From positions 10,040 to 74,039 of the forward strand of contig JAAZXP010000002.1 of the NCBI GenBank assembly GCA_014240055.1: a DNA stretch of 64,000 bases, written 5' to 3'. The translations under genes were made by a program, and so were the position numbers. Position 1 is the first letter of the stretch; the number at the start of each line of letters is the position of its first letter. The notes beneath the pieces were generated by a model, which was not told the origin of the DNA, ran no database searches, and saw only the letters and a list, made by a program, of their open reading frames with translations. This document shows, piece by piece, positions 1-59,435 of this stretch. The stretch is from Methanobacteriota archaeon (GTDB taxonomy: Archaea > Thermoplasmatota > Poseidoniia > MGIII > CG-Epi1).

Positions 1-73
1 TTTCATTAAATACTTGCTTAGCTACAATGCAATCTCCACAAGTAGGAGTCCCGTATACTTTTATTTTAGTCAT
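1..73 (-). CDS. glutaredoxin/NrdH-like small thiol-disulfide protein (N-terminal fragment; gene runs off the window start)
   Basis: Reverse complement of 1..73 reads ATG ACT AAA ATA AAA GTA TAC GGG ACT CCT ACT TGT GGA GAT TGC..., i.e. [24 protein letters not shown]. The bKVYG(T)xxCxxC N-terminus is typical of glutaredoxin-like proteins. Its ATG overlaps the gcvP stop (TAATG). It is absent from the ORF track because it is truncated. Confidence 0.5.
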   Translation of the reverse strand, partial: MTKIKVYGTPTCGDCIVAKQVFNE

Positions 74-2904
74 TAATTATCCTCCATGTATGTTTCTACA
101 TTAAGACATGAACATATCAAATTTCGGTCGCCCCAAGTATTATCGACTCTACCAACTGAAGGCCAGAATTTATGATTTTTTAAATAAGCTATAGGATATG
201 CAGCCAGCTCTCTTGAATAAGAATGTGACCATTCATCATTAGCAACCTCAATTGCAGTATGTGGAGCCCCTCTCAATGGATTATCATTAGAATCATCACT
301 CTCTCTAACTAAGTCTATTTCTGATCTTATTGAAATCATTGCATCACAAAATCGATCTAATTCTATCTTAGATTCCGATTCTGTAGGTTCTACCATTAAA
401 GTACTTGGAACTGGCCAAGACATCGTTGGAGCATGGTAACCATAATCCATTAATCTCTTAGCAATATCATCAATTACCAAACCTGCCTTAGACAATAATT
501 CACGAGTATCTAAAATGCATTCGTGAGCTACATTTCCAGACTTTCCTGTATATAATATTTTATAATGTTTCGACAACCGTTTAGCTATATAATTTGCATT
601 CAATATTGCAACTTTTGTCGCCTCTGTTAAGCCATCGGGCCCCATCATTGCAATATAAGCCCACGAAATTGGAAGTATACTAGAACTTCCCCAATTACTT
701 GCTGAAACTGGTCCTGTATATGAATTACTTTTGTAATCCTCTAAAGGATCTGAAGGTAAAAACTCTATTAAGTGTCTAGCAACCCCAATAGGCCCCATGC
801 CAGGCCCTCCGCCACCATGAGGTATGCAGAAGGTTTTATGTAAATTCAAGTGGCAAACGTCTGCCCCAATTTCACCAGGTTTACACAAACCTACCATCGC
901 ATTCATGTTTGCCCCATCCATGTAAACCTGCCCTCCATTAGAATGAATTATGTCGCAAACTTCACTAATAGTTTCCTCAAAAACTCCGTGTGTTGAAGGA
1001 TAAGTTATCATCATAGAAGCCAATTCAGAAGAATGTGCTTTCGCTTTGATTTTAACATCTTCTAAATCTATATTGCCTTGATCATCACATTGAATCCCTA
1101 CTACTTTCATACCAACCATTACTGCAGATGCTGGATTAGTACCGTGTGCTGATGTTGGAATTAAACAAACATTGCGATTAGTATCTCCTCTTGAATGATG
1201 ATACTCTCGAATAGCTAACATGCCTGCATATTCTCCTTGACTACCTGCATTTGGTTGTAGTGATATTGCTGCAAAACCAGTTATCTCACATAACCACTTT
1301 TCTAAATCTTCAAAGAGAGAAAGGTATCCCTTAACTTGATCAAGCGGTGCATAAGGATGTATATTGGAAAAATTAGGCCATGTTACAGCTTCCATTTCAG
1401 CTACAGCATTCAACTTCATAGTACAAGAACCCAATGGAATCATACTATTATTTAGTGATAAATCTTTTGATTCTAATCTATGAATATATCTTAACATTTC
1501 TGTTTCTGAATGATATGTATTAAAAACTGAGTTTTGGAGATATACCGTTTCACGCTTTAAAGAAGAAGGTATACTACTCTCCGAAGGTTCAATCCATTCT
1601 GAATTAAATAGATCTAAAATTATCTCAACATCTGAATTTGTAGTTTCTTCATCAATAGAAATCCCTATAGAATCCCCATAATCCCATAAATTCATATCAA
1701 AATCTAATGCTTTTTTCATAATATTAAAATCTTTTTTCTTAACTTTTATCGTATCAAAGAAGGCATCGGATTTTATCTGATAACCGCTTGATTTCAAACT
1801 GGACGATAAACCAGACGCGAGATAATTAACTCTTTCAGCAATTTTTCTTAATTTATTAGGGCCGTGATATACTGCATACATTGAAGCCATAATGGCTAAA
1901 AGAACCTGAGCAGTACAAATATTGCTTGTAGCTCTATCTCTACGTATGTGTTGCTCACGTGTTTGTAATGCCAAGCGTAGAGCATCGTTGCCATGCTTAT
2001 CTTTTGAAACCCCTATTAACCTTCCTGGCAAATAACGTTTGTACTTTTTCAATGTCGCCATAAAAGCAGCATGAGGACCTCCAAAACCCATTGGAACTCC
2101 GAAACGTTGAGAATTGCCTATTACTATGTCTGCACCCCACTCGCCAGGAGGCTTGAGGAGGCAAAGCGAAAGTAAATCAGTTGAAGTTATGGTTACTGCT
2201 CCGATATTTTTGGACTTACTAATGGTTTCTGAATAATCTTCAATGGAACCATCAATTGCAGGATATTGGAGTAAAATCCCAAAAACATCTTCAGTAAAAT
2301 CAAATTCCGAATGTGAAGAAACTAAAACTTTAATATTGAGAGGTTCAGCCCTAGTTTTTATTACATTAATTGTTTGAATATTAACTAAATCTGAGACGAG
2401 AAATGTAGAACGCTTACCTCTTAATAAATTACAAGCCATACTCATGGCTTCAGCTGCAGCAGTAGCTTCATCCAAAAGAGAAGCATTCGCAATTTCCATA
2501 CCAGTCAGATCAGACACCATCGTCTGGAAATTCAATAAAGCTTCTAGTCGACCTTGGGCAATCTCCGCTTGATAAGGCGTATACTGAGTATACCATCCTG
2601 GATTTTCTAAAATATTACGCTTAATTACAAGAGGTGTTTTTGTACCGAAATAACCATGGCCTAGAAAATTTTTATTAACTCTATTAATAGACGCAAGCGA
2701 ATTCAATTTGATAAGTGCTTCAGACTCTGAAATTGCCAGAGGTATATCCATATTATTTTGAGAAATTATAGTACTTGGAATTATCGAATTTGAAAAATCA
2801 GAAAGATTATTAAAACCAAGATAAGTCAACATTTCATTAATATCCACCGACGATGGACCTATGTGTCGATTAAGAAATCTGTCAGGATGAATTGATTCTT
2901 TCAT
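73..2904 (-). CDS. gcvP: glycine dehydrogenase (decarboxylating), single-chain P-protein of the glycine cleavage system
   Basis: The 943-aa ORF has full-length P-protein architecture (N- and C-terminal PLP-fold halves) and characteristic segments such as GMMGPDGL and HLNLHKTF. Confidence 0.9.
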
Positions 2905-4424: not shown

Positions 4425-7400
4425 ATGTGTTGTTTATACATGCCTATGGTTATTCGACATCGTCTCGCATTTCTGGTTATTATTTTTATAACTTTTGCAA
4501 TTATTGGTCAAGTTAAAGCTGAAGACGCTGAAATCAATATCTCTTCAATAAAATATACCAATGACTTAGAAAATGGAGAACTGGTAACTCTTGTATCTAG
4601 CGGAAAAGATAATGCTACAAGTTATAAATATAAATTATATGATGACGATGACGATGATTGTGACACTCAATCATGCCTTCCAGTAAACTGGTATGCATCA
4701 GATTATGATGATTCTGATTGGAATATTAACGCCACTCCCTTTGGTAATGATGAACTTAATGGTCTAGAACCTAATACAATTTGGCAAACTGAAGATGGAT
4801 TAGGTGATTATTTAGTAATCCGCCATTATTTTACATATGAAAAACCTGAAGAAGTTCTAAGCGCAACACTTAGTATTGCTCATAATAATTATTACATGGC
4901 TTATCTTAATGGAAATTTAATCAGAGATTGCTCATGGTACCAAAATCATGATGGATGCTATGAAGGAGATGCTGATTATTGGAATAATGTGCTAACATAT
5001 GACGGAAATCAATACTCAGGACCTAATCCAGATTGGCTTATAGACGGTGAAAATGTTCTTGTTATTCTTGGAATAGACATAACCTGGGGAGGCGATACTG
5101 ATCAATGGTTAGATGTTGAACTGGCAATTAATGTACCTTCTTGGAAAAATACACCAATTATTCTTGGGGACGAATTAGTGTTGCGTATTGATTATTTTAA
5201 CTATGGCGAAAATAATGAAACTAATGTGACTATTAGTTTAGATATTGATGGAATCTTTTTTTCTAATAAAACAATAGATATAGAGAAAAACCAAACCTAT
5301 CAATGGCTAGTTGATTGGACACCTGAGAGATTAGGAGATATCAATGTAACTGCCAAAGTTCTTAACACAACGCTCACACGATCTATACATATCGGCTATT
5401 ATGCATATAGTATTGATTTTTTAAAAATACATAAAACATCAAATATTGATGAAACGGTAACATTTCAATTCAATATAACCAATGATGGTGATGTGAACGA
5501 TAATTTTACATTTTATTTGTATAATATTCCAAATGATTGGGATTACACGTTTTCACCAAATATTGCTTCTTTATCACCAAATGAATCAATGGATGTAAAA
5601 CTTAACATAACTACTAGCGATACTGCTCAGGCTGGAAATTACTCAATATTTCCAACTATAATATCACAATACTATTCTCAAACCATTAACACATTAATCC
5701 ATTCAGGGTCTAGTAATTCAACTGAATATCATTATGCAATATGGAATGGAAGTGATTTCCCAGATGATTTTTATGAAATAAACTATAATGATTCTATGTG
5801 GGAAGTCGGAGCTGCACCATTTGGGAACGATGAACTTAGAGGTATTGAACCTAATACATTATGGCAAACTGACGATACGAATTATACCTATATTACGGCT
5901 AGGCACTGGCTTAACTATACTGGAAGTTTAGATTTTAGTGAACTACGAATAAAAATTGCCCATGATGATTACTATAAAGTCTATCTTAATGAAAAATTGA
6001 TAAGGGATTGCTTCAGCGGATGGGGATGCGGAGGAGATGGACGTTATTGGGAAGATACAATTACTATCAACAGTTCTTGGTTAAATAATGGAAATAATTT
6101 AATTGCAATAGCTGCAAGAGACTCAACACAAGGTTGGGGTGGAAGCGGAGGTGGTGATGGACGACAATGGTTAGACATGGAACTTGAAACTTCCAATTTA
6201 AGATCTAAATTATGGGATTTTCAAGAAATATACAATGAGCTTACAGTATCTGTAAATGAAACATATAATATGGAATTATTAATTCCAATCTCAAATAAAG
6301 ACATTTCTGAAGAACAATATACTTTCACGATTTGGGCAATTAATACTGGAAATGTCAAAGATACTTACGATATCACAATTTCTTTAAATGATACGAGTAA
6401 TTTTACCATAATAAGCTATAATTCAGTATTGGAAATACCATACGGCCAAGATAGAGACATTGAACTAAAAATAGCCCTAAGTGATAGTATAAGTAAATTT
6501 TCAATCGGATCTTTTAACGTAAACATAGTCTCCCGAAATTCAACTGAAGAACTTTCGGATAGTGCAATTATTAGTGCAAAAATGTACGTTATTCCAGATA
6601 CCTTATCTCCCGGGACATATACCGAATCTCCTGAATTAGTTAATAATTCTTCTTTTGAAGTCAATTGGTATGTTCATGACTGGTACAAAACAAATGAAAT
6701 AATGGGGAATGATACAAAATATTTCCTAATAGAATACATGACAGATAATGGAACTAATGGTGAAGTTTGGGGAGATTGGATACTTTGGAATAACTTTTCT
6801 AAAGATATTGACTCCGCAATATTCCCATATGGGATTGACGGATATCAATACCGTTTTAGATCCATAGGTGGAGATAATGAAGGCCTTGTAGAAAATAAAG
6901 AAGATAAATATGATAGTCAAACATTAGTTGACTTGTCTGCCCCTTATGCTGACGTATCTCTAAGACTATCAACCAATATAACTAATTTAGACTATATCGA
7001 AATTGAGTGGAATGTAGAACATCCAAACATTACTGGCTATAATATAGAATATCGTTATGATTACGGCCCAATATGGATAAGTATAGAAGAAAATACTCTC
7101 GCAAAATGGGTAGGTTTCAATATACCTATTGATGGAATATACGAATTTAGAGTTTTGACGTATGATGAAGCAGGTAATGAAGGCATTTCAGATCTGACTG
7201 ATATTTTAACTATAGATACTATAGCTCCAAATACAAAACTCATAAATCTTCCAGAATTAATTAGCTCATACTCAATTATTATAGACATAGAAAATTTAGA
7301 AGATACTGTAAATTTAAGTTTATATTATGCATTATCTAAAGAAGGGGAAGAGATATTTCCATTGGAATGGACCCTATATGGAGAATATAAAACCAGTGAT

Positions 7401-8111
7401 TTACCTGTATCTATTAACACCGTTGATGGAAATCATTATTACTTTAAAATCGTAGCTTATGACTTAGTGGGAAATCACGTTCTTAACGAAAGTTATGAAG
7501 AATTTATTGTAGATCAACAAATACCTAAGAATATCAGAAATCTAGAAATAAAAGATACGAAAGAAATTGACAATGGCACTACGTCCATTTCAATTACATT
7601 TCAATCATCTCAATCCCAAGATTTGACTGGGTACCGAATTTATCGTTCAATAAACCAAAATGAAACTGGAGAAATAATCGGATATTTAGAAGCTGGAGAT
7701 ACTTATCTGTCTTACAGAGACCCAAATGTTAAGCTTGGATTTGAATACTATTATTCTGTAGTAGCCGTAGATCGAATGGAGTTTGAATCTGAACCTGAAA
7801 TGGAATCTATAAGTCTTAAAAGTGAAAATATCGAAACTGTAATTGAAAATGATGAAGACAATAATAGCTTTATCTATATTGGGGGTGGAATCGTAGGTTT
7901 AGCTGCCTTAGGTGCTGGATATTATGTATTTAGTAATAAAGGAATGAATGGGGAAATATTGTCTTCGGTTGCAGAAGTAGTCGATGAAGCTGATACTGGA
8001 ACTTCAAAATTTACTGAAATAGATGGCGAATTATTGTGTAGTGCCTGTGGATCTATGTTTGGAATTTCAGAAGAGAAGGTTTGTCCATCCTGTGGCGTAT
8101 TTGATGAATAG
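4425..8111 (+). CDS. giant cell-surface glycoprotein
   Basis: 1228-aa ORF with an N-terminal signal peptide (hydrophobic FLVIIFITFAIIGQVKA), a hydrophobic TM helix near the C-terminus (IYIGGGIVGLAALGAGYYVFS) and a C-terminal CxxC...CPxCG zinc ribbon. It carries dozens of N-x-S/T sequons and an acidic run DDDDDDCD. Two copies of a ~150-aa module are present (WxxxAxPFGNDELxGxEPNTxWQT...AHxxYYxxYLNxxLIRDC). The second half shows periodic beta-strand-like repeats. Confidence 0.7.
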   Translation: MCCLYMPMVIRHRLAFLVIIFITFAIIGQVKAEDAEINISSIKYTNDLENGELVTLVSSGKDNATSYKYKLYDDDDDDCDTQSCLPVNWYASDYDDSDWNINATPFGNDELNGLEPNTIWQTEDGLGDYLVIRHYFTYEKPEEVLSATLSIAHNNYYMAYLNGNLIRDCSWYQNHDGCYEGDADYWNNVLTYDGNQYSGPNPDWLIDGENVLVILGIDITWGGDTDQWLDVELAINVPSWKNTPIILGDELVLRIDYFNYGENNETNVTISLDIDGIFFSNKTIDIEKNQTYQWLVDWTPERLGDINVTAKVLNTTLTRSIHIGYYAYSIDFLKIHKTSNIDETVTFQFNITNDGDVNDNFTFYLYNIPNDWDYTFSPNIASLSPNESMDVKLNITTSDTAQAGNYSIFPTIISQYYSQTINTLIHSGSSNSTEYHYAIWNGSDFPDDFYEINYNDSMWEVGAAPFGNDELRGIEPNTLWQTDDTNYTYITARHWLNYTGSLDFSELRIKIAHDDYYKVYLNEKLIRDCFSGWGCGGDGRYWEDTITINSSWLNNGNNLIAIAARDSTQGWGGSGGGDGRQWLDMELETSNLRSKLWDFQEIYNELTVSVNETYNMELLIPISNKDISEEQYTFTIWAINTGNVKDTYDITISLNDTSNFTIISYNSVLEIPYGQDRDIELKIALSDSISKFSIGSFNVNIVSRNSTEELSDSAIISAKMYVIPDTLSPGTYTESPELVNNSSFEVNWYVHDWYKTNEIMGNDTKYFLIEYMTDNGTNGEVWGDWILWNNFSKDIDSAIFPYGIDGYQYRFRSIGGDNEGLVENKEDKYDSQTLVDLSAPYADVSLRLSTNITNLDYIEIEWNVEHPNITGYNIEYRYDYGPIWISIEENTLAKWVGFNIPIDGIYEFRVLTYDEAGNEGISDLTDILTIDTIAPNTKLINLPELISSYSIIIDIENLEDTVNLSLYYALSKEGEEIFPLEWTLYGEYKTSDLPVSINTVDGNHYYFKIVAYDLVGNHVLNESYEEFIVDQQIPKNIRNLEIKDTKEIDNGTTSISITFQSSQSQDLTGYRIYRSINQNETGEIIGYLEAGDTYLSYRDPNVKLGFEYYYSVVAVDRMEFESEPEMESISLKSENIETVIENDEDNNSFIYIGGGIVGLAALGAGYYVFSNKGMNGEILSSVAEVVDEADTGTSKFTEIDGELLCSACGSMFGISEEKVCPSCGVFDE
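4677..5130. repeat. intragenic duplicated module, copy 1 (beta-sandwich/lectin-like, contains the PFGNDEL...EPNT.WQT motif)
   Basis: DNA at 4741-4800 matches 5821-5880 at about 80% identity. The conserved P codons sit at 4737 and 5817, exactly 1080 nt (360 aa) apart. Confidence 0.55.
5757..6225. repeat. intragenic duplicated module, copy 2
   Basis: See copy 1. The protein segments WEVGAAPFGNDELRGIEPNTLWQTDD...IAHDDYYKVYLNEKLIRDCF align to copy 1. Confidence 0.55.
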
Positions 8112-14120: not shown

Positions 14121-14540
14121 CTAAAGATCTAATATTAATTTAATTTTAGAAGGTGGACCTTCTGAGACATTTAGCATGTGATAAGAAATAGCCTTTATTT
14201 CAACACCATACCCATGCTTCTTTTCGTTATATTTTTCCCCATGTATTTTTCCTTTTAATTTCTTATTCTTATCCATTATAATCTGAAGATTTGTAGAGCC
14301 AACTATAAAATTCTCCGTATCAAAAAGAAAAATTAGATGAGATATATAACGAATTAATAAATTATCTAAATCAATACCTTCCAAATCTATACTATGGAAA
14401 GACTTCAAGTTGGGTAAATTACCGCCAGTAATTATCTCAGTAAAGGCCAAACTAACTTCGTCAAAAGCTTCAGATAAATTTTCACCTTTAACCTCAATCC
14501 CAGCATCGGCAGTATGTTCAAAGATTTTTCTCAATATAGG
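14121..14540 (-). CDS. archease (RtcB tRNA-ligase activator)
   Basis: Contains IFEHTADAGIEVKG, the archease signature FEHTADxG. The tracked ORF (to 14591) runs 27 nt into the tRNA gene and has no ATG/GTG/TTG start after the tRNA, so the true start is unresolved. Confidence 0.7.
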   Translation of the reverse strand, partial: PILRKIFEHTADAGIEVKGENLSEAFDEVSLAFTEIITGGNLPNLKSFHSIDLEGIDLDNLLIRYISHLIFLFDTENFIVGSTNLQIIMDKNKKLKGKIHGEKYNEKKHGYGVEIKAISYHMLNVSEGPPSKIKLILDL

Positions 14541-14564
14541 GTTAAAACGCTTTCTTAATAAAAA

Positions 14565-14642
14565 TGGTAGCGGGGGATGGATTTGAACCATCGATCTCCG
14601 GGTTATGAGCCCGACGGGATTTCCTAGCTACCCCACCCCGCT
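14565..14642 (-). tRNA. initiator tRNA-Met (anticodon CAT), CCA encoded
   Basis: The reverse complement folds as a cloverleaf. Acceptor stem AGCGGGG/CCCCGCT has an A1:U72 pair. D-loop contains A14 and GG. Anticodon stem TCGGG/CCCGG carries three consecutive G:C pairs next to the loop CTCATAA. T-arm GATGG-TTCAAAT-CCATC, discriminator A, and a 3' CCA at 14565-14567. A1:U72 plus the triple G:C anticodon stem are archaeal/eukaryal initiator hallmarks. Confidence 0.85.
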
Positions 14643-14749: not shown

Positions 14750-15268
14750 GTGGATAATGGAACGGCCTTAGAAGAAATTAAAAAACAAATAGAAAGTTTA
14801 GAGAGTAATCAGATTATTCTAATAGTAGTGGTTGCTGTAATATTACTCTATCTTGTTCTAACAAAAACACAAAGAGGTAGAGACGTGAGAAAAAAATTTA
14901 GAATTCTACCTAAGCTAATTCCATTAGAAGATGAATATGAAGCGGAAATTGAAGAACCAGAAAATCTTGATGGTAGTAACAGGCAACTCAAAGGAGAAAT
15001 TATTGAAAATGAACATGATATTCTGAATAGACTATTGGGAAATAACGAACCAGAAAAATTAGATGGATTTAATGAAGAAGATGCCGTAATTTTTAAAGAA
15101 CAAGAAGAAACAATACCACTTCCTAATCAAAATTTTGAAGATATGAAAGATCATAATAACTCTGCAAGTGAAAACCAAGAATACTGTGCCTCATGCAATA
15201 AACCGGTGAAAACTGAATGGAAAGCCTGCCCTTTTTGTGGTGAATTTCTCGAGATTTATGAAGACTAA
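14750..15268 (+). CDS. small membrane-anchored protein with cytoplasmic C-terminal zinc ribbon
   Basis: GTG start. One TM helix (IILIVVVAVILLYLVL), an acidic linker, and a C-terminal CASCNKPVKTEWKACPFCG. Its 3' end overlaps the convergent gene 15265..17451 by 4 nt. Confidence 0.45.
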   Translation: MDNGTALEEIKKQIESLESNQIILIVVVAVILLYLVLTKTQRGRDVRKKFRILPKLIPLEDEYEAEIEEPENLDGSNRQLKGEIIENEHDILNRLLGNNEPEKLDGFNEEDAVIFKEQEETIPLPNQNFEDMKDHNNSASENQEYCASCNKPVKTEWKACPFCGEFLEIYED

Positions 15269-17451
15269 TTATTATTTCTTCTGCGTTGCAGAATAGTAAC
15301 TAATGTTAATAACAATAATGTGGGCATGTACCCTAACGCTGGTAAGGATGAGTCATTATTATCTCCGCCATTCCCACTTGTGGTTTGCTCACTTACTGTT
15401 AAACGAATATCAAGAGAATTATCAGATAATGAATAAATTGATTCAGAAACTGCTTGCTCAAAGTCTACTTTAATTTTTAAAAGTGTAAAACCCGAAGATG
15501 GGTTTGACCAAGTTAATATTACTGGTTCATTACCAAAGCCACTGATGCCTTGTTCCAACTTATATTCATCTACCACTTTTTGACCTGCATACAACTTAAT
15601 ACCAAAAGGTACTGTACTTTTACCACCATTATTGTAAACTGTTAATCTTATTTGTACCGGTTCTGTAGAACTTAAATCGTCTTCTGTTAGAAGAGAGAAT
15701 GGCTTACCATTGATAGAAACGTCTTCAATATTAACTGCTAAATCTGAAATTCTATCAAGTGGAATATCTATTATTATTTCTGAAGACAGAGTTGCAGAGC
15801 CATCGCCCGGGGAAATTGAATCTGCTGTTAAAAGAAGACCTATCGGATCACCTAAACTATTTTCGTAATTTAACGGCCTTAATACCAAATCTATTTTTTG
15901 TGTTTGAGACTTGTCTATAGTTACTGCCGAAATCTCAGTCCCATCAATCTCTATGCGTATAGACCAATCACTACGAGCAGTTGTAGCATCTAACCGATAT
16001 GTGTCCTTATCGCTACCAGTATTTCTCAAATTAATACTGAAATAATAATAACCATCAATATCCAAAGCTTCTGGATCTACATTTATTTTATCAGGAGGTG
16101 AAAGAAATACTACGCCGTATGTTCTAACTGTAGCATCTAACTTAATGCTCTCAGAAACTGCAGAATTACTTGTTGAAGTCACAATTATGTTTACTGACTC
16201 TTTACTTCCTCCAGGTGCTGAAACTGGAGCTTCAATCTTAACTTGAACGTAATTGTACAAGTCCATTCCAATATCAAGGCTTGATTGTGAAGTTAATGTT
16301 GCTTCCCAATTTGAGGGTAACGAATTATCATCTAATTCTATAGTAAATATGTCTCGTGTATTGCCTCTATTGTATACTAAGAATTCAAAGTCGACCTTAC
16401 CTCCCTTTGGTAACTGTCCAGAAGGACTATAATTCTCACTGAACTCTATTTCTAATCCATATTCATCAACAATCAGCTCATAGTCTATAGTGGCACTCCA
16501 CATATTTCCATAAGCGTCCTCAATTGAAAACTCAATTTCATAAGTTCCAGTTACTATGTCTTGATCTTCTTGATAATACCAAGTTCCTTGGATATATTTA
16601 GCATAAGTATGCTTATCTTTAACTAAAATTGAATTTTGAAATTTCCCTCCGTTGGAAACTCCCTTAATTTCAATGTTAGCACTCTCTGAATCTAAATTAT
16701 CGGCACCTAAAGCATTTGAGACGTTTACCTTGATAAACAAACTGTCTGCACTCATTTCTTCGACACGGTCATTACTAAAATAACCTAAGTAATCATTCGC
16801 AATTTCCACATGTCTAACATTCATCATAAATGAAGAATCACATGCTACAGTCCCTGAATCATTGCCACAACCTCTACTTGAACCTGCCTTGACCCAAGCT
16901 GTTCGATTGTCTGTATCTGGAGCCCATGTAACGCTTGTTTCAAGCTTAAACCCAATCGTCGTGTAAGCTGGAACTCCATCAGGGAAATCACTAGTGTCTA
17001 TTGAAGAACTTTCTAATTCTAAAGTATAATTTCTACTTAAAAAGGCACCAAATCCAGAGGTTTTTGTGACTTCATCAACCGAAATATTTGACATGCCCTC
17101 AGATGTTGAAATAAATAATGTAGTGCGAAACCTAATTTCTTGAACATTTGTTGATTCAACCCATATAATATAACTCATGGAATCGCCCAAGTTAATAGGC
17201 CCTCCAAGATTCATTTCCCATGAAACTAATGGATAAAATGAATTTTCTTGGCCTGGCTCATCATAAGCTTTCCAATACTTTGGTTTTTCAGATGTAGGCT
17301 CTTCTGTAGTTAGCTCATAGGTATCTCCAAAACCGGCCTTATCAAAATAAATCTCAATGTCAGCATATTCATTACTCTCAGCTTGTGAAGGTCCTGCCAT
17401 AATCAAAAAAGCAAGAACACAAAGCGATAGGGTTTGCCAGAAATGTTGCAT
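15265..17451 (-). CDS. large secreted cell-surface protein with C-terminal membrane anchor
   Basis: 728 aa with an N-terminal signal peptide (CVLAFLIMAGPSQA). Many N-x-S/T sequons and beta-rich repeats. C-terminus is ...SSLPALGYMPTLLLLTLVTILQRRRNNN (TM helix plus basic tail). Confidence 0.55.
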   Translation of the reverse strand: MQHFWQTLSLCVLAFLIMAGPSQAESNEYADIEIYFDKAGFGDTYELTTEEPTSEKPKYWKAYDEPGQENSFYPLVSWEMNLGGPINLGDSMSYIIWVESTNVQEIRFRTTLFISTSEGMSNISVDEVTKTSGFGAFLSRNYTLELESSSIDTSDFPDGVPAYTTIGFKLETSVTWAPDTDNRTAWVKAGSSRGCGNDSGTVACDSSFMMNVRHVEIANDYLGYFSNDRVEEMSADSLFIKVNVSNALGADNLDSESANIEIKGVSNGGKFQNSILVKDKHTYAKYIQGTWYYQEDQDIVTGTYEIEFSIEDAYGNMWSATIDYELIVDEYGLEIEFSENYSPSGQLPKGGKVDFEFLVYNRGNTRDIFTIELDDNSLPSNWEATLTSQSSLDIGMDLYNYVQVKIEAPVSAPGGSKESVNIIVTSTSNSAVSESIKLDATVRTYGVVFLSPPDKINVDPEALDIDGYYYFSINLRNTGSDKDTYRLDATTARSDWSIRIEIDGTEISAVTIDKSQTQKIDLVLRPLNYENSLGDPIGLLLTADSISPGDGSATLSSEIIIDIPLDRISDLAVNIEDVSINGKPFSLLTEDDLSSTEPVQIRLTVYNNGGKSTVPFGIKLYAGQKVVDEYKLEQGISGFGNEPVILTWSNPSSGFTLLKIKVDFEQAVSESIYSLSDNSLDIRLTVSEQTTSGNGGDNNDSSLPALGYMPTLLLLTLVTILQRRRNNN

Positions 17452-17505: not shown

Positions 17506-18723
17506 TTATCTAAAAAGATTATGTCCAGTACTTATATTGGTAACCTGACAATCTTCAGCAATAAGTTCTCCTCTTCTATAAACTTGTGAGGGAAATATGG
17601 CTGGCCAATCTTCAAATGGCGTCCAATTTGCATTGGAATGTAACTTGTCTAAATCTATTGGTTGGCTATTTTTCATATCAACTATCATAAAATCTGCAGT
17701 TAAACCTTGCGAAATACGACCTCTCTCTAAACTTAGACGTGATGCTGGAGCTTCAGACATTGCATTGATTAAACGAGACATTTCAAGACGTCCTTCTGAA
17801 ACCTCATTCAGCATTAGCGGTATCATAGTTTCGACGCCAGGTAGTCCCGAAGGTGGCGTATCTGACCGTTTTTCACTTATAGTGTGTGGTGCATGATCAC
17901 TAGCAAGAATCGGAATTTGTCCTTCTCGAAATGCATTATACAGTGTACTATTGTCATTACGTGTTCTTAATGGAGGGTCCACTTTACAATCCATTGATTG
18001 ACAATTCTCCAAATTCAGAAGTAAATGGTGTGGGCAAACTTCTGAACTAGCTAAGCTAGGCATATTATTCAATCCATCTTCAGTAGACAAATGTGCGACA
18101 TGCAAGTATGATGAAGAGGGCATTGAAGATAAACATTCAGATTCGGCATTATGACGGTTTTTGGTGTGATCTGCTAATTCTTTGAGAGGTTCATCATACA
18201 TGTGATCGGGATGCTCTCCATGTATCACTAAAGGTTTGTTAGTTTTTTCCAAAATTTCTCTAGCATTAGAAAAATACTGTTCAGATGTAATACCATAAGG
18301 ATATAATTTCCAGAATGCAGAAGGTATAGTATCAAACCACTCTTTATCGGCTAATCCTTCTTCTACATTAACTCCAAGACCAAAATCAACTACTGATTTA
18401 GAGGAAGCTATAGCTTCTTTTTCGTTAAAAGTAGTGACGTCTGAAGTAAAAGGATTCGTATTAGGCATATCTACAACTGCAGTAACACCACCACATGCAG
18501 CAGACTCAGAACCACTTTTCCAATCTTCCTTGTGCGGATAACCGGGATCTCTAAAATGTACATGCATATCTAATGCACTTGGTAACATAATTCCCTTAAA
18601 TTTGATTATTTTATCTCCTTTGAGACTAGATTTTACTATCTTTATTTTACCATTTTCAATACCAACACAGGTATCTGTCAATCCCTTGTTTGGAATCCAA
18701 ACTTTACCTTCAAAGACGTCCAT
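17506..18723 (-). CDS. pyrC: dihydroorotase (amidohydrolase superfamily)
   Basis: Metal-binding signature LDMHVHFRDPG, and later HVAHLS. 405 aa. Allantoinase/hydantoinase cannot be fully excluded. Confidence 0.6.
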   Translation of the reverse strand: MDVFEGKVWIPNKGLTDTCVGIENGKIKIVKSSLKGDKIIKFKGIMLPSALDMHVHFRDPGYPHKEDWKSGSESAACGGVTAVVDMPNTNPFTSDVTTFNEKEAIASSKSVVDFGLGVNVEEGLADKEWFDTIPSAFWKLYPYGITSEQYFSNAREILEKTNKPLVIHGEHPDHMYDEPLKELADHTKNRHNAESECLSSMPSSSYLHVAHLSTEDGLNNMPSLASSEVCPHHLLLNLENCQSMDCKVDPPLRTRNDNSTLYNAFREGQIPILASDHAPHTISEKRSDTPPSGLPGVETMIPLMLNEVSEGRLEMSRLINAMSEAPASRLSLERGRISQGLTADFMIVDMKNSQPIDLDKLHSNANWTPFEDWPAIFPSQVYRRGELIAEDCQVTNISTGHNLFR

Positions 18724-20303
18724 TATGTTTTTTCCTCTACAACTAAATCAAAGGTTCTCGTATAAACCTGTTCGGTTCTACTTATTGCTCTCAAATCAAA
18801 ACTAAATACACCTTCAGCAGGATCTTCGATTGGAGTTATTGACAAAGTCAAATTTGCATAAGAATTCGAGGTTAGATTCAAAGTCAAATTTTGACCTTCT
18901 GAATCCCACCAAACATAATTACCAAACTCGGGAGAAGAAGAATTTAACAAACTATCCCTCTCATTGACGAATATGTAATCTACTTCAAAAATAATAGTAT
19001 AATTAATTATCTGATCAATATTTATGGTAAGATTATCCCAACCTTCTGATTCTCCTATATTTTTTATTGTAAAATTAGTCATATTGGATTCTCCATAAAC
19101 TGGATTGAATTCATTTATATCTGATTCAATGCTTAAATCAAATTCAGATTCAACAGTGTAAATTGGCGATGGTGTGAAAGTTACAACCAAAATTAAAGCA
19201 GTCAGAATTCCAATAGCCCATCTCGATTTACCAAGAACTGAAAGTTCTTCTGATGGAGGTGGATGTGAGGTTCCTAAAAAATAAATCAAAACAGCATAGA
19301 CTGCCCAACCTGAATATTTAGGACCAAAACCAGGAATATCATAGAAAGCCATGAGTATCAAGAGTAATATGACACCAAAAGAAATACCATTTGCTTTAGG
19401 GCCTAACAAAGCTCTTGCAATATGACCACCATCTAATTGACCTGCTGGCATTAAATTAAGAGCAGTAACAAAGAACCCAGTCCAACCTGCTAAAACCACA
19501 GGATGTGAAAGATAATCTCCACTAGGTGTATAAAATGTACTTGTTAAAGAATATAATAGGTCAAAGAATATTGAAGTACCTAGATAGAGAGAGTCTCCAG
19601 AATCAACTGGAGCCAAAACAGCATTTTGCTCAGTTAACCAAAAACCAAAAATTGTAACTGGAATTGCAACCAATAAGCCAGCAATTGGGCCGCTAGCTCC
19701 AACATCTAACAAGGCTTTTCGATTTGGTATAGGTTCCCGAATTGAAATAAAAGCCCCCATTGTCCCAAATGGAAAAATCATGGGTGGCATCGGTAGAAAA
19801 AAAGGTAAGGATGCTTCAAGATTATGCTTTTTGGCATAGTAATAATGACCCATTTCATGAGCTCCCAAAATAGCCATTAAAGGCAATGAAAATGTCATAA
19901 AACCCATGAAAAATACGTCAGGAGTTATCAAAAGACGAAGCCAAAACCACTCCATACCCAATAATTCTGAACCTGAATAGGAGGCCCACCACATAGAACC
20001 GGCCCAAGTAGTTGTAAAAATTGTGGCCAATAGTAAATATAAATTCATTTTATTTTTAACATAATCGAAAGAAGGTTGTGGAATTACTACAAGAATTAAT
20101 TCATCACCAGCTCTTCTTAACATTGGAAAGGCTCTATCAGCTCCCAAGCTATTGACTTTCTTAAAAGCCAATCTTATTTCTTCAAATTTAAGTTCTAAAT
20201 CGTCTGGTTCTTTGACATAAAATAAATGAGCATTCCCGTCCCAAACATAATTTTCAATGTTCCAACCGAATCTTTCTAGGAATTTAGTTATTGTTTTAGA
20301 CAT
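18723..20303 (-). CDS. M50-family (site-2 protease-like) intramembrane metalloprotease with C-terminal extracytoplasmic domain
   Basis: HEMGHYYYAKKH (HExxH inside a TM helix) and a downstream LNLMPAGQLDGGHI (LDG motif). Multiple TM helices. The C-terminal ~150 aa carry N-glyc sequons. Confidence 0.7.
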   Translation of the reverse strand: MSKTITKFLERFGWNIENYVWDGNAHLFYVKEPDDLELKFEEIRLAFKKVNSLGADRAFPMLRRAGDELILVVIPQPSFDYVKNKMNLYLLLATIFTTTWAGSMWWASYSGSELLGMEWFWLRLLITPDVFFMGFMTFSLPLMAILGAHEMGHYYYAKKHNLEASLPFFLPMPPMIFPFGTMGAFISIREPIPNRKALLDVGASGPIAGLLVAIPVTIFGFWLTEQNAVLAPVDSGDSLYLGTSIFFDLLYSLTSTFYTPSGDYLSHPVVLAGWTGFFVTALNLMPAGQLDGGHIARALLGPKANGISFGVILLLILMAFYDIPGFGPKYSGWAVYAVLIYFLGTSHPPPSEELSVLGKSRWAIGILTALILVVTFTPSPIYTVESEFDLSIESDINEFNPVYGESNMTNFTIKNIGESEGWDNLTINIDQIINYTIIFEVDYIFVNERDSLLNSSSPEFGNYVWWDSEGQNLTLNLTSNSYANLTLSITPIEDPAEGVFSFDLRAISRTEQVYTRTFDLVVEEKT

Positions 20304-21585: not shown

Positions 21586-22530
21586 ATGAACAACTCCGGA
21601 AAAACAAAAGAAATAGAAGTAGAAGAGTTGACAGAATGTACTGAATGTAAATCTGAACATATCGTTCGAGATTACAAGCGTGGAGAGATAACTTGTAGTA
21701 ACTGCGGATTAGTTGTTGATGGACAAGTAATTGATCAAGGGCCTGAATGGAGAGCCTTCGACTCTGAGCAAAGTGAAAGAAGAGCAAGAGGGGGAGCACC
21801 CATGAGTGTTATGGTTCACGATAAAGGGCTTTCAACAGATATCGGCTGGGGTGGGCGAGACATATATGGAAACAATGTTCCAACCAGAAACCGATCTCAA
21901 GTTTATAGAATGAGGAAATGGCAAAGTCGAACTAGAGCCTCAAATTCAGCAGACAGGAACCTAGCTCAGGCGTTAACTGAGTTAAATCGATTAGCATCAA
22001 AGATAGGACTACACCGACAAGTTAGAGAAGAAGCTGCTATGCTTTACAGAAGGGCAGTTCAAGACAACTTAGTCAGAGGACGTTCTGTCGAAGGTGTAGC
22101 TGCTGCAGCATTGTATGGCGCTTGCAGAAGATGTGAAGTCCCAAGAACTTTAACCGAAATTACTGAAGCCTCACGAGCATCCAAGAAAGAAGTTGGAAGA
22201 ACTTACCGTTATATTTCAAGGGAATTAAGGCTAAACTTACAACCGGCTTCACCATCGGTTTATATTGTACGATTTTGTAGAGAATTAGAATTACCAGGTA
22301 ATGTAGAAAGTGCTGCAATAAACATACTAAACCAAGCTATCGAAGCTGAATTGACATCTGGAAGAGGTCCAACTGGTGTTGCAGCTGCTGCAATCTATAT
22401 CGCATCAGTAGTATACAATAAAAGAAAAACGCAAAAAACCATTGCAGATACAGTCGGAGTTACTGAAGTAACTATTAGAAATCGTTACAAGGAATTAGCC
22501 AAAAATCTAGACATTGTAGTATACAAGTGA
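21586..22530 (+). CDS. tfb: transcription initiation factor IIB (TFB)
   Basis: N-terminal zinc ribbon CTECKS...CSNCG followed by two cyclin-fold repeats. 314 aa. Confidence 0.9.
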
Positions 22531-53335: not shown

Positions 53336-53650
53336 ATGTCAGACGATAATGATAATAATGATGAATTCACCGATTTCAAAGGTAGAGCCGATTCTCCTGA
53401 AGATGGTTTCACAACTTCTGAAATGATTACTGGATTCGGAATGCTCCTTATTTTTGTAGGATTCATATTTGGTTTAATCAGACTTTTAGGCCTAAAAAAC
53501 GGAGAGATTCCTGCTGATTATGACAACCACCTTGATCAATTGTACCTAAGTTATCTTATAATGTTTGTAGGAATATTGATAACCAGTCTATTAGGATTCG
53601 GTGGAATGTTCAAAAGAACTATGTCTTCTTTCCTCGGTTCTAACGATTAA
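53336..53650 (+). CDS. small 2-TM membrane protein with acidic N-terminus
   Basis: 104-aa ORF. Its 3' end converges on the pilin-like genes. Confidence 0.3.
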   Translation: MSDDNDNNDEFTDFKGRADSPEDGFTTSEMITGFGMLLIFVGFIFGLIRLLGLKNGEIPADYDNHLDQLYLSYLIMFVGILITSLLGFGGMFKRTMSSFLGSND

Positions 53651-54036
53651 AAAGTTAATAATTTATCGAAACTTACGGACATTGTATTGTCATTGAGCTC
53701 ATAAGTATAAACGAAGGTGTGAGTTCCATTGCTTTCTGTTGCTGATGTTAAAGTATAGAGTAAAGAGTATCCGCGTGAGGCAAGGATTGACTCAAATTCT
53801 TCTGTGGCAGTATCAAAAGACATGGATAATTCTACACCATCTGCAGCATTCAAAACTTCATACTCTAAGGCTAATGAAAAACTATTCTCTAATGAAGTAA
53901 TTATTGGAGTTATATCGTGTCTTTCTCCTTGATGATTACCCAAATTTACTGAATGTGTGATTGTACTAGTAACTGCAATTAGAGTAATTGACATTAAAAG
54001 TCCAGAAACTAGAAGTAATTGTGCTTGATCTCTCAT
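53647..54036 (-). CDS. pilin-like secreted protein (putative class III signal peptide)
   Basis: N-terminus MRDQA|QLLLVSGLLMSITLIAV: short charged leader, small residue, then a ~20-aa hydrophobic helix. Confidence 0.35.
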   Translation of the reverse strand: MRDQAQLLLVSGLLMSITLIAVTSTITHSVNLGNHQGERHDITPIITSLENSFSLALEYEVLNAADGVELSMSFDTATEEFESILASRGYSLLYTLTSATESNGTHTFVYTYELNDNTMSVSFDKLLTF

Positions 54037-54488
54037 TAATCCTCCCTATATCCATACCAAAGCTGCAAATTTAATTCCCAGAGTTCGTCGTCGGCCCAAA
54101 CGACTCTGAAAGTTTGAGTAACTGGTCCGGTGTGGACCGTTCTATCAACAAGAGTCTCTGTTTGACCTTCATGCGTCCCTTCCAACCTATATGACAAGGA
54201 AGAAGAAAGACCTGAATCCAAATATTGCTTTATTGCCGTATTATTGTCTGTAGCTAACCACCAGGATAGTGTAGAATTATGATGTGTTGCAGCAATCGTT
54301 GAGTCTGTTGGAACCCATTCATCTAGTATCTCCAGAATTTCTAATCCTGTAAAATAAAGATCATTTTCCTCAAAATTATTAGCATCACTTGTGGGAAGAA
54401 CACTAACTGCAACATTGATTGTGGAAGTGAATAAAGTAGCTACTAACAAAACTTCCAAAACATGCATTTGACCTTTAGTATTTTTCAT
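54036..54488 (-). CDS. pilin-like secreted protein (putative class III signal peptide)
   Basis: N-terminus MKNTKG|QMHVLEVLLVATLF: KG followed by a hydrophobic helix with Glu near +5/+6. Confidence 0.4.
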   Translation of the reverse strand: MKNTKGQMHVLEVLLVATLFTSTINVAVSVLPTSDANNFEENDLYFTGLEILEILDEWVPTDSTIAATHHNSTLSWWLATDNNTAIKQYLDSGLSSSLSYRLEGTHEGQTETLVDRTVHTGPVTQTFRVVWADDELWELNLQLWYGYRED

Positions 54489-54504
54489 AATTATTAAACT
54501 CCAA

Positions 54505-55740
54505 TTAAATCTGTGGAGTGTTTACTGAGGTTGCAATACCTATTATTTCGAAAATAAACCAACCCAAGAAGAGAAGGAAAGATGCTCGACTAAATGCAGA
54601 ATATAGCTTACCTGTAGACATGAAGCCTGCTGCAAGTCCGTTACCTATTCCTTGAACCATAAGACTGTAAAGGAACATACTTGAAATCCAAACTTCATTC
54701 ATCTCCCTAATTGTTAGATTACCTATAGACATACTACCGCCGCCTGTGGCTGCTGAAGAATCTACAATTGCAGGAATAAAAGTACTAGCAAGAACTAAAA
54801 TAATACCTAAGTAAACAAAGAAAGAAGCGTAAATAACAGTCACATAACTGCCTACTTCTTGTCTTCTTTCATTCTCTAAAGCCTTTATTTCTCTAGCATC
54901 AAAAGAGGCTGCCAAAAGAATATCCGAAATTCGACCTCCGGCCCTATTTGCTTCATCAACCATTCTTACAGCTCTTGTTACAATTGGAGAGGTTACTCTT
55001 TCAGTAAACATTTCTAAAACTTCACCGAAAGAAACTCCCCACGAAATTTGTGAAGCCATTTTGTTTACCTCATCATTAAGATTACCATATTCTCCTTTAG
55101 CTAAAGTTTGGATAGCTACAGTCATACTAAGTCCTCCTTTCCAGTATTCAGCAAGATCTCTTAAAAAATCGGGAAACTTTTCCTCAACACGTGCTCTAAT
55201 TGCATCTTGCCTTTTTCCATACCATCCATAAGGATACATCAAGGCAATTAAACCAAAAACAATGTAATCTATAGCTGAAATTTCAGGATAACTACGAAGC
55301 CATATATCTGCAGTCATCTCTTCATCAATGCCATTTACAAAAGGATCTTTATCTTTAGTTTCATTATTTGTAATTGCAAAAGGTGACCCTAAACCAGTAA
55401 TTAATTCATATCTTTCTCCATTCTGTGGTTCAGCATATGTATTTCCTAAAGTAAAAGTAAATCGACCATCATTCAAATTCCAAGGATTATCAAATTGTTT
55501 ATCATTATCTCTATCTTCCATTGGGGTGAGAGCATCAGTTCTTATGTCTTCATTGGCAATTGCAAAAAATAAGAGTGCTAATACTATTGAAAAAGCTGCA
55601 ACTAGGGCTGGGCCCCAATCTGCATCTTTATTTTTGACACTTAACCAACGATTGACTTTCCAATACTCCATCCAACGTCTTTTGACACCAGTACGGCGAT
55701 CTGCGTAGACTTTATTCTGAAGGTTCCCTTTTATTGACAT
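54505..55740 (-). CDS. T2SSF-domain membrane protein (FlaJ/TadB-like half)
   Basis: TM helices plus a cytoplasmic helical domain (WGVSFGEVLEMFTERVTSPIVTRAVRMVDEANRAGGRISDIL). Confidence 0.6.
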   Translation of the reverse strand: MSIKGNLQNKVYADRRTGVKRRWMEYWKVNRWLSVKNKDADWGPALVAAFSIVLALLFFAIANEDIRTDALTPMEDRDNDKQFDNPWNLNDGRFTFTLGNTYAEPQNGERYELITGLGSPFAITNNETKDKDPFVNGIDEEMTADIWLRSYPEISAIDYIVFGLIALMYPYGWYGKRQDAIRARVEEKFPDFLRDLAEYWKGGLSMTVAIQTLAKGEYGNLNDEVNKMASQISWGVSFGEVLEMFTERVTSPIVTRAVRMVDEANRAGGRISDILLAASFDAREIKALENERRQEVGSYVTVIYASFFVYLGIILVLASTFIPAIVDSSAATGGGSMSIGNLTIREMNEVWISSMFLYSLMVQGIGNGLAAGFMSTGKLYSAFSRASFLLFLGWFIFEIIGIATSVNTPQI

Positions 55741-56711
55741 TAGTCAGTTGAAACCTCCTGACTTAGTGAATAAAATAAACCTGAAAATACTATTTGGATA
55801 ACTGGAAATCCTCCAAAAACTAGAAGGTACATGTGTATCTGTTCAAGCTGCATTCCAGCTCCAGAAACCCAGAATGTAATAACTGCAATAATCATTGCGA
55901 AAATAGGCAGTGCGACAGCTACAACCACATAAGCTTCGGAAAATAAGGCCATTTGCTGTAAAACATCTTTAACATGGCTTCTATTTTGTTGACCATAATA
56001 TTCTGCTCTGTTTAAGAAATAAAGCTTTAGATTTCCTCCTGCTGTTACAGTCCCAATAATTCCCTGAACAAATTCAGCGAATCTTTCAGAGGGTGTTCTG
56101 TCTACAGCTTCCTTTAATGTTGTTACTAAATCCCGACCCATAAACTCCATACTATGATAGATCCAAGCCGCCTCATGCGCAATTTCCCCATATATATCTT
56201 TATTTCGAGCAAGAGATTTGAAAGTCATAGAAGGCGTCGCATTAGCTGCTGCCATTGCTGATACATAACTAGCTGCGAAAGGAATTTGTTTGTCCATATC
56301 TGAAGCTCTACTACTCTCCAACAAAGCTGGAGTTAACCACTGAACCAATGCCACTAAACCAGGTAATGCCAGCAACAATACTGCAGCTATAACTATTTCA
56401 ACAAAGAGGGAAATTGAATAAGTTGGTATTATCGTTTCTCCAGTTTGGCTATTGATAGTAGGTGCTGCATTCGGATCTTCCATAGACTCTATTTGAGGAA
56501 TTACTACGCCAAGAAGGAGCAATGTAACGCCCAGACCAACTAAAAAAGTTAAAACTACTTGCATTACTGTAGTAGCCACATAATCTTCTGCTAAAAGTGG
56601 AATACGGGCTTTAACTAATTGATTTTTGAAAGATAATGAATCTTTTGTTAGCATGCGGCCTAACCAACCGAATAAAACTCTGCTGAATGTTTCAAAACCC
56701 GTCAGAGCCAT
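55740..56711 (-). CDS. T2SSF-domain membrane protein (FlaJ/TadC-like half)
   Basis: TM helices plus cytoplasmic FKSLARNKDIYGEIAHEAAWIYHSMEFMGRDLVTTLKEAV. Confidence 0.55.
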   Translation of the reverse strand: MALTGFETFSRVLFGWLGRMLTKDSLSFKNQLVKARIPLLAEDYVATTVMQVVLTFLVGLGVTLLLLGVVIPQIESMEDPNAAPTINSQTGETIIPTYSISLFVEIVIAAVLLLALPGLVALVQWLTPALLESSRASDMDKQIPFAASYVSAMAAANATPSMTFKSLARNKDIYGEIAHEAAWIYHSMEFMGRDLVTTLKEAVDRTPSERFAEFVQGIIGTVTAGGNLKLYFLNRAEYYGQQNRSHVKDVLQQMALFSEAYVVVAVALPIFAMIIAVITFWVSGAGMQLEQIHMYLLVFGGFPVIQIVFSGLFYSLSQEVSTD

Positions 56712-58954: not shown

Positions 58955-58958
58955 TTTA

Positions 58959-59435
58959 TCATCCAGTGGTTAACTTGACAACCTTTAGATTATCATCATA
59001 GTATATGACTATATAAGAAGACGTCGATATCAATGGTGAACCGCTAGCAGTCTCTATTGCAGTAGCTGGAAATAGAGGGAATGTGACCTCGAATTCCCCA
59101 CCTCTAGGCTGCATTGTAGTAACCTTGAGACCCTCGGCGGTGCCTGCCAACTTGTACTTTATTCCATGATTTATTGATTCGATACCTGTATTCAATTTGA
59201 TAACTGGTGAAGAATCAGGATATTCTCTTACAGTAGTTAATAAATCTTCAACTGACAATTGAAAATAAAGTGCCAACTGTTCAGCCTCTTCCTGTGCAGT
59301 ATTTGCCATGTTTCCATTGAGCATTGTAGTGGAAGTAAGCATTATTGATGATAAAATTAAAATCGAAACGGCGATTGTGTAAACATAACCAATTAATTCT
59401 GATGCTGCTGAATCATCGTAAGCTAAATTTGACAT
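58959..59435 (-). CDS. pilin-like protein (putative class III signal peptide)
   Basis: N-terminus MSNLAYDDSAA|SELIGYVYTIAVSILIL. Confidence 0.35.
   Translation of the reverse strand: MSNLAYDDSAASELIGYVYTIAVSILILSSIMLTSTTMLNGNMANTAQEEAEQLALYFQLSVEDLLTTVREYPDSSPVIKLNTGIESINHGIKYKLAGTAEGLKVTTMQPRGGEFEVTFPLFPATAIETASGSPLISTSSYIVIYYDDNLKVVKLTTG

Follow-up and report, generated by a model that had tools for sequence, protein, structure and literature searches.

The 64,000-nucleotide stretch of DNA analyzed here (hereafter, the window; positions 10,040 to 74,039 of contig JAAZXP010000002.1, assembly GCA_014240055.1) comes from an archaeon of Marine Group III (MGIII) within the Poseidoniia. An open reading frame (ORF) at 4425..8111 on the plus strand (1228 amino acids, aa, as listed) encodes a Poseidoniia-specific type-I surface glycoprotein consisting of a signal peptide, a β-rich ectodomain, one transmembrane (TM) helix, and an acidic tail of 59 aa that carries a C4 zinc ribbon. 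A protein of 172 aa, encoded at 14750..15268 on the same strand, has a ribbon tail as well. The coordinates first noted for the two ORFs were correct.

The ribbon of the large protein was conserved without exception. We detected 58 homologues, of which 57 were full-length, with 25-98% identity. Those named by lineage derived from metagenome-assembled genomes of Marine Group III or 'Candidatus Poseidoniia', except one labelled Marinimicrobia. Most genomes sampled contained one orthologue of constant length, while a second, divergent paralogue was present in a few; two divergent paralogue groups were found among the homologues, and they coexist in some genomes. Each of the 57 full-length homologues retained TM helix, tail, and ribbon, even the paralogues with an identity of 25-32%, and the tail was conserved in frame in these 57 proteins and in 39 genomic loci. 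Nine tail residues were invariant (F1196, C1205, C1208, G1209, F1212, C1220, P1221, C1223, and G1224), the two cysteine pairs C1205/C1208 and C1220/C1223 across 41 aligned sequences. The ribbon follows the pattern F-x4-G-x3-C-x2-CG-x2-F-x7-11-CPxCG plus five residues, the last one acidic, and the chain ends with CSACGSMFGISEEKVCPSCGVFDE. MGIII orthologues always had exactly five residues past the last cysteine and an acidic end. The first-pass annotation of this DNA had named in advance the restriction of the motif to the two window proteins as grounds for abandoning its proposal. The motif was not so restricted: besides its presence in all 57 homologues, analogous tails were found on unrelated surface proteins (see below).

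Regional conservation, calculated as majority fraction, was 0.67 for the ribbon, comparable to the best domains of the ectodomain. Apart from the signal peptide, variability was highest in the TM helix (0.46), the segment preceding it (0.44), and the linker behind it (0.42). Structure prediction of the tail, which the earlier annotation had proposed, was carried out with AlphaFold2 (AF2): TM helix and linker obtained a pLDDT of ~30, and the ribbon was modeled with moderate confidence (pLDDT 68-81) as a hairpin of short strands (model residues 556-559, 562-565, and 571-573). Because the ribbon is conserved and folded while TM helix and linker are variable and of low pLDDT, we regard it as a mini-domain that folds on its own, is under selection, and is held by a flexible tether. 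The single C-terminal hydrophobic segment is rich in glycine, with a mean Kyte-Doolittle hydropathy of only ~1.46; in the orthologues, the mean glycine fraction of the TM helix was 0.23, and 33 of 57 contained GxxxG. The 59-aa tail has 3 K/R vs 12 D/E, and the ribbon together with the ten residues before it has 1-2 K/R vs 5-8 D/E across orthologues. A sequence search of the PDB with the tail profile returned weak knuckle matches only (GATA, L32, L37e, rubredoxin, and HVO_2753-like) and no informative homologue.

The N-terminus of the large protein, with a basic n-region (R/H/R), a hydrophobic core, and VKA/ED, reads as a Sec-type signal peptide. Translation probably starts at the ATG at 4440 (M6), resulting in 1223 aa, because orthologues begin with MPMV or MLMV; the listed ATG at 4425 (MCCLY...) would lie five codons too early. 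As the signal peptide is followed by a single further TM helix, the C-terminus is expected inside. Both ribbons are predicted, and very likely, to be cytoplasmic, because sequons are enriched in the ectodomain only, K/R residues follow the TM helix directly, and the charges of the small protein are asymmetric. N-x-S/T sequons occurred 36 times in the ectodomain compared to 16.2 ± 3.5 in shuffled sequences (z = 5.6); no other protein of the window reached this density. The tail contained none, and the NFT of the orthologues is replaced by KFT there. Most orthologues had one or two K/R directly after the TM helix and acidic residues before it; the protein of the window has only one K, a weak positive-inside signal, and a net acidic tail. 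In the 172-aa protein, 6 K/R fall within the 15 residues that follow the TM helix, compared to 2 K/R and 5 D/E before it. Taken together, signal peptide, single TM helix, sequons, and charges agree with the architecture put forward in the first-pass annotation, with both ribbons in the cytoplasm.

Modeled separately with AF2 (mean pLDDT 81.4 and 81.6), both halves of the large protein were all-β, with the domains in the following order: a small N-terminal sandwich, jelly-roll A, two immunoglobulin (Ig)-like domains, jelly-roll B, and about five Ig/FN3 domains. The models also agree with the β-rich repeat region noted earlier from the sequence. The proposed duplication of a module of ~150 aa was recovered as well (aa 81-245 vs 426-600, 42% identity over 159 aa, E = 1e-32), and jelly-roll A was the most conserved region of the protein (0.71). 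Foldseek comparison with the PDB, used for domain-level fold assignment only as TM-scores of multi-domain models are low, matched the N-terminal half with the sugar-binding jelly-roll and Ig domains of GH2 β-glucuronidases and β-galactosidases and with a sialidase carbohydrate-binding module (CBM), and the C-terminal half with FN3 tandems of fibronectin, contactin, and cytokine receptors. Among Pfam models, NPCBM_assoc scored at its cut-off (24.4 bits) and CARDB below it (20.6 bits). The resemblance of the duplicated module and the Ig domain following it to the N-terminus of GH2 glycosidases is one of fold: neither Pfam nor the AF2 models of both halves contained a catalytic domain, and a GH2 enzyme was rejected as there was no catalytic (β/α)8 barrel, no Pfam GH2 match, and only all-β structure. 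Likewise rejected were an archaeosortase (PGF-CTERM) substrate, since the protein has no PGF motif or other sortase-type signal and continues for 59 residues after the TM helix, and the NCBIfam model NF041740 for choice-of-anchor T (29.9 bits, below the cut-off of 70 bits).

Paired knuckles of the form CxxC-x(5-25)-CxxC were present in 3 of the 61 non-overlapping ORFs of the window, namely the large protein, the 172-aa protein, and TFB (21586..22530, N-terminal ribbon). Within-protein shuffles of the 61 ORFs yielded an expectation of 0.006 such proteins, and of 0.002 for a location at the extreme C-terminus, where two were observed. The 172-aa protein is composed of a TM helix, TKTQRGRDVRKKFR, an acidic stretch, and CASCNKPVKTEWKACPFCG. 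Nearly all of its 262 homologues were 166-187 aa long, and conservation extended along the whole length, beyond the ribbon too, with the stretches (i) TKTQRGRxVRKKFRILP; (ii) NLDGSNRQLKGEII-NEH-ILN; (iii) NQNF; and (iv) QE[YF]CxxCxKPVxxEWKACPFCGEFLE. It scored under the Pfam zinc-ribbon thresholds (18.8 bits for a cut-off of 25, 18.8 bits for 27.3, and 17.1 bits for 27).

The first reading of the window had assigned the same tail motif, with CxxC-x(9-11)-CPxCG spacing, to both proteins. This range covers both spacers, which are 11 residues long in the large and 10 in the small protein, and the generic C4 knuckles are indeed common to both. Specific homology of the two tails was rejected: aligned with hhalign, their profiles reached a probability of 57%, only the Cys/Pro/Gly knuckles were aligned, and each family had its own conserved residues. 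The common motif is thus a generic zinc-ribbon signature, the same at fold level only, and the 172-aa protein is an independent case of a TM helix, tether, and cytoplasmic ribbon, not a homologue of the tail of the large protein. In eight MGIII loci, its gene was located ~6.6 kb downstream of the large gene. An operon was rejected as an explanation for this constant distance, which reflects general synteny, because the genes in between are housekeeping genes. Both ribbon tails (8094-8108 and 15251-15265) end in a hydrophobic or aromatic residue and two acidic residues (VFDE and IYED), which may represent a terminal peptide motif.

Similar designs were found on other proteins. When 1.84 billion representative sequences were searched with the tail profile, full-length single-stretch matches were almost only members of the large-protein family itself or fragments of them. 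Other matches were mostly multi-ribbon proteins scoring through repeated knuckles, and in many of the weaker ones a signal peptide and an ectodomain were followed by a TM helix and a C-terminal ribbon array. P0229, P0225, P0252, and others combine a β-helix, He_PIG, or CARDB ectodomain and a TM helix with 3-4 tandem C-terminal ribbons. Since one of these ribbon-array proteins, P0252 (WP_455392287.1), is annotated from [Eubacterium] cellulosolvens, the C-terminal design also occurs in Firmicutes. Two short-contig proteins, P0182 (88 aa) and P0190 (170 aa, with a TM-like segment), were rejected as new architectures; they join an unrelated N-terminus to the exact family tail and are probably assembly or gene-calling chimeras.

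Across the Poseidoniia loci (666 kb, 640 ORFs), three families displayed a TM helix with a C-terminal ribbon, and no protein with an N-terminal ribbon and a TM helix was found among the 640 ORFs. The third family has WD40/PQQ β-propellers and PKD domains outside, a TM helix, and a basic tether with CPACG...CDNCG inside. Its best 120 relatives comprised 71 proteins with a TM helix and a short tail (≤25 residues), 28 without C-terminal TM helix, 15 with a TM helix and a ribbon, and six with other long tails. The 15 ribbons belonged to at least five unrelated sequence types, often on very long P/Q-rich tethers. As ribbon, short tail, and other ends alternate among these relatives, the ribbon tail is a module, acquired repeatedly, that can take the place of a plain anchor.

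Membrane-tethered ribbons as such are already known, and the large protein had been called unusual with too much emphasis: they recur in PF13240 (Zn_Ribbon_1), PF13248 (Zn_ribbon_3), and PF12773 (DZR), usually at the N-terminus and in Firmicutes, with functions that are at most hypothesized. Examples are the Firmicutes proteins with an N-terminal ribbon pair, a TM helix, and a YARHG domain, for which a role as membrane-tethered transcription factors was hypothesized (PMC3355149), and YdjG of B. subtilis (PMC11237479). The large protein, according to its predicted topology, combines as they do a C4 ribbon in the cytoplasm with a single TM helix and a domain outside the cell. It falls outside the YARHG type, which has its ribbon pair at the N-terminus and no signal peptide, by its single C-terminal ribbon behind a signal peptide and an ectodomain of 1100 aa, and by its occurrence in archaea. 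From the tethered ribbons of Pfam it differs by its strong acidity, its own F-x4-G-x3-C extension, and sub-threshold scores. The two knuckles with a short spacer and the β-hairpin (AF2, moderate confidence) are those of the zinc-ribbon fold; because neither protein reaches the gathering thresholds of Pfam, both ribbons are classed with zinc ribbons at fold level only. A limited literature search found no description of C-terminal cytoplasmic ribbons on giant archaeal surface proteins.

Among archaeal surface proteins, the membrane-anchored S-layer family PySLP of Pyrobaculum, with tandem Ig-like domains and a short, highly basic tail (bioRxiv 10.64898/2026.08.21.746120), resembles the large protein in signal peptide, Ig-like stalk, C-terminal TM helix, predicted N-glycosylation, and lineage-wide conservation. 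The tail of the large protein is different (59 aa, acidic, with a zinc ribbon). The β-helix/He_PIG/CARDB and WD40/PQQ-PKD ribbon proteins agree with it in the succession of signal peptide, big ectodomain, TM helix, tether, and C-terminal C4 ribbon(s), but their ectodomains and ribbons are unrelated, the ribbons are often 3-4 in tandem and pass Pfam thresholds, and their tethers are basic or P/Q-rich instead of acidic. A ZAS anti-sigma factor was rejected: HxxxCxxC is missing, and the ribbon is C-terminal and of the C4 type. To our knowledge, archaea have no sigma factors.

Table 1. Coordinates of the ribbon proteins and their parts (window positions unless a locus is given; residues counted from the listed start)
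Feature	Position	Strand	Basis
Large surface protein, whole ORF	4425..8111	+	Probable start ATG 4440; 58 homologues, 57 full-length, 25-98% identity
Predicted signal peptide, aa ~6-32	4440..4520	+	MPMVIRHR, hydrophobic core, VKA/ED; read from sequence, orthologues with same n-h-c layout
Small N-terminal β domain, then acidic DDDDDD/Cys loop, aa 33-85	4521..4679	+	AF2 model ma3e04c281ecc; conservation 0.67
Jelly-roll module A, fold like GH2-type sugar-binding domain, aa ~86-245	4680..5159	+	Duplication; Foldseek; conservation 0.71
Two Ig-like domains (CARDB-like, NPCBM_assoc/NEW3-like), aa ~246-430	5160..5714	+	Pfam marginal; AF2
Jelly-roll module B, duplicate of module A, aa ~431-600	5715..6224	+	Self-alignment; AF2
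About five Ig/FN3-like β-sandwich domains (stalk), aa ~601-1128	6225..7808	+	AF2 model mfe62096ebb10, pLDDT mostly ≥90; Foldseek
Acidic, variable membrane-proximal segment, aa 1129-1148	7809..7868	+	0 K/R and 6 D/E in 15 aa before TM; conservation 0.44
Gly-rich TM helix FIYIGGGIVGLAALGAGYYVF, aa 1149-1169	7869..7931	+	Hydropathy; orthologue TMs; AF2 low confidence
Acidic, variable linker, predicted cytoplasmic, aa 1170-1192	7932..8000	+	Conservation 0.42; pLDDT ~30
C-terminal C4 zinc ribbon, aa 1193-1228	8001..8108	+	Invariant residues; conservation 0.67; AF2 short β strands
172-aa single-pass membrane protein, predicted N-out/C-in, with C-terminal C4 ribbon	14750..15268	+	Homologues; charge asymmetry; synteny
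TM helix of 172-aa protein, aa 22-39	14813..14866	+	
Ribbon of 172-aa protein, aa 146-163, Cys 146/149/160/163	15185..15238	+	
Third family, WD40/PQQ-PKD-TM-ribbon	L001 16950-19651; L038 15251-18727	-	

Directly adjoining the 172-aa gene, a CARDB/choice-of-anchor-T-like surface protein of 728 aa is encoded on the opposite strand (15265-17451, minus); its gene shares 4 nt with the 172-aa gene, at the stop of the latter. This protein has no ribbon and ends ...SSLPALGYMPTLLLLTLVTILQRRRNNN, with a TM helix followed by QRRRNNN. Short motif, TM helix, and basic cluster resemble the tripartite signal of sortase/archaeosortase substrates, although the motif is not PGF. A homologue of M50 (site-2) proteases with 526 aa is located 3.5 kb from the 172-aa gene (18723..20303, minus); nothing supports a functional link, given this distance, the wrong orientation preference, and the genes in between.

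The window has a G+C content of 35.5% and is archaeal, encoding TFB, TiaS, and archease. The archease gene probably starts at an internal ATG, because a tRNA-Met (CAT) gene (14565-14642, minus) covers the first 27 nt of the listed ORF (14121-14591, minus). At 73-2904 (minus), the glycine dehydrogenase GcvP is encoded as a fused, full-length protein of 943 aa (TIGR00461, 1409 bits), not split into GcvPA/GcvPB. At 53647-60483 (minus), several small proteins, each with a TM helix at the N-terminus, are encoded together with two multi-TM proteins and one protein of 750 aa. Judging from Pilin_N and T2SSF matches in the syntenic locus L002 (8618-9118 and 14040-15281), this cluster is probably of the archaellum or type IV pilus-like kind.

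What might the tail do? The best reading, which we put forward tentatively, is that of a tethered cytoplasmic knob for protein docking. The two jelly-roll (CBM-like) modules and the Ig/FN3 stalk stand outside the cell, anchored by the single Gly-rich TM helix, and the chain ends in the conserved C4 ribbon on a variable acidic tether of ~25-40 residues. The ribbon would fold around zinc in the cytoplasm. As a small knob for protein-protein contacts, it may couple the surface protein to a cytoplasmic or membrane-proximal partner, a possibility raised in the first-pass annotation, for positioning, retention, or assembly. The Gly-rich TM helix suggests helix-helix packing and hence oligomers, so that the large protein is probably oligomeric, packed via small-xxx-small contacts. 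Nucleic-acid binding is unlikely because the ribbon is strongly acidic. We counted in favor of a docking knob the tail in every full-length homologue, its nine invariant residues, the island of conservation (0.67), the predicted topology, the hairpin modeled behind a tether of low confidence, the acidity of the ribbon, the Gly-rich TM helix of the orthologues, and the use of the design on unrelated ectodomains with long low-complexity tethers. Several points weigh against it. A conserved partner gene was not found near the large gene, whose neighbors are housekeeping genes not kept in distant homologues. The invariant residues other than cysteine (two Phe, Gly, and Pro) could be purely structural, and conservation alone is no proof of a binding surface. 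That the ribbon binds zinc and lies in the cytoplasm is a prediction, and the Pfam zinc-ribbon models (PF13248/PF13240/PF12773) remained below gathering threshold for the large protein (11.8 bits for a cut-off of 27 and 11.1 bits for 27.3).

The ribbon could also be a passive stopper, i.e. a zinc-folded knob without partner which locks the topology and resists extraction of the long, force-bearing ectodomain. The invariant residues can be explained as fold determinants. The low hydropathy of the TM helix in the window protein (~1.46), the one K after it, and the net acidic tail would fit this function, as would the alternation of ribbon tails with a TM helix and short tails (≤25 residues) in the WD40/PKD proteins, as if the two were interchangeable. 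Yet many orthologues kept the ribbon despite more hydrophobic TM helices (≤2.49) and R/K after them, and a flexible tether of 25-40 residues, or of up to ~100 in other families, would be needless for a membrane plug. A stopper appears unlikely, though far from negligible. That the ribbon of the large protein is extracellular with disulfide-bonded cysteines, or that its tail is an annotation artefact, is hardly credible. Only the weak positive-inside signal of the window protein (one K after the TM helix) points in this direction, against which stand the signal peptide and single TM helix forcing the C-terminus inside, the CxxC...CPxCG geometry and predicted hairpins of zinc-ribbon type, the tail in frame across 57 proteins and 39 loci, and the lack of sequons in the tail (KFT where orthologues have NFT).

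Transmembrane signaling, in which the CBM-like modules sense a polysaccharide or particle and the ribbon sequesters a regulator or is freed by intramembrane proteolysis, seems improbable to us. The RsgI/ZAS anti-sigma factors use such a logic of sequestration and release. In its favor, the jelly-roll modules are similar to sugar-binding domains, 18723..20303 encodes a site-2 protease of the M50 type, and Gly-rich TM helices are typical of substrates of intramembrane proteases. Conversely, site-2 proteases cut N-in substrates while the large protein is C-in, and the strongly acidic ribbon makes binding of DNA unlikely. Also in favor of signaling, the same logic was proposed for the N-terminal zinc-ribbon-TM-YARHG proteins, and the published hypothesis of membrane-tethered transcription factors concerns ribbon-TM proteins (PMC3355149). 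Against it, no regulator is consistently adjacent to the gene of the large protein, and a single conserved orthologue of constant length in most genomes suits a structural protein better than a sensor. Very doubtful, finally, is a tag for sorting, assembly, or quality control, read by the machinery for insertion, glycosylation, or surface assembly. The position of the ribbon at the extreme C-terminus, the exactly five residues past the last cysteine with an acidic end in MGIII orthologues, and the recurrence on several large surface proteins would agree with a tag. But the 728-aa neighbor and most WD40/PKD relatives are devoid of ribbons. Ribbons from different families have no sequence features in common except the knuckles, which speaks against a receptor shared by all of them, and the archaeal sorting signals known so far (PGF-CTERM) have another construction. 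The sorting tag considered in the first-pass annotation is thus unlikely to be a mechanism of general use: a TM helix with a short tail suffices in 71 of 120 WD40/PKD relatives, and one with a basic tail in the 728-aa protein.

The ocean harbors abundant heterotrophic archaea of Marine Groups II and III, which are uncultured and whose cell envelope is essentially uncharacterized. The gene of the large protein is conserved across the Poseidoniia genomes sampled, and its product is a plausible main component of the envelope or of adhesion. An invariant zinc knob in the cytoplasm would imply a physical or functional connection between the surface and the interior of the cell. Quite improbable, in our estimate, is the wider idea that membrane-tethered ribbons, C-terminal and N-terminal alike, are a general, overlooked device of prokaryotes for coupling across the envelope, by which several giant surface proteins of Poseidoniia would be wired to common cytoplasmic machinery (cytoskeletal, ESCRT/PspA-like, or transcriptional). 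If true, it would amount to outside-in coupling of the integrin type or to a signal set free by proteolysis. As the same design is found on unrelated surface proteins of archaea and Firmicutes, a partner found for one of them could annotate a large class of membrane proteins now described as 'zinc ribbon domain-containing'.

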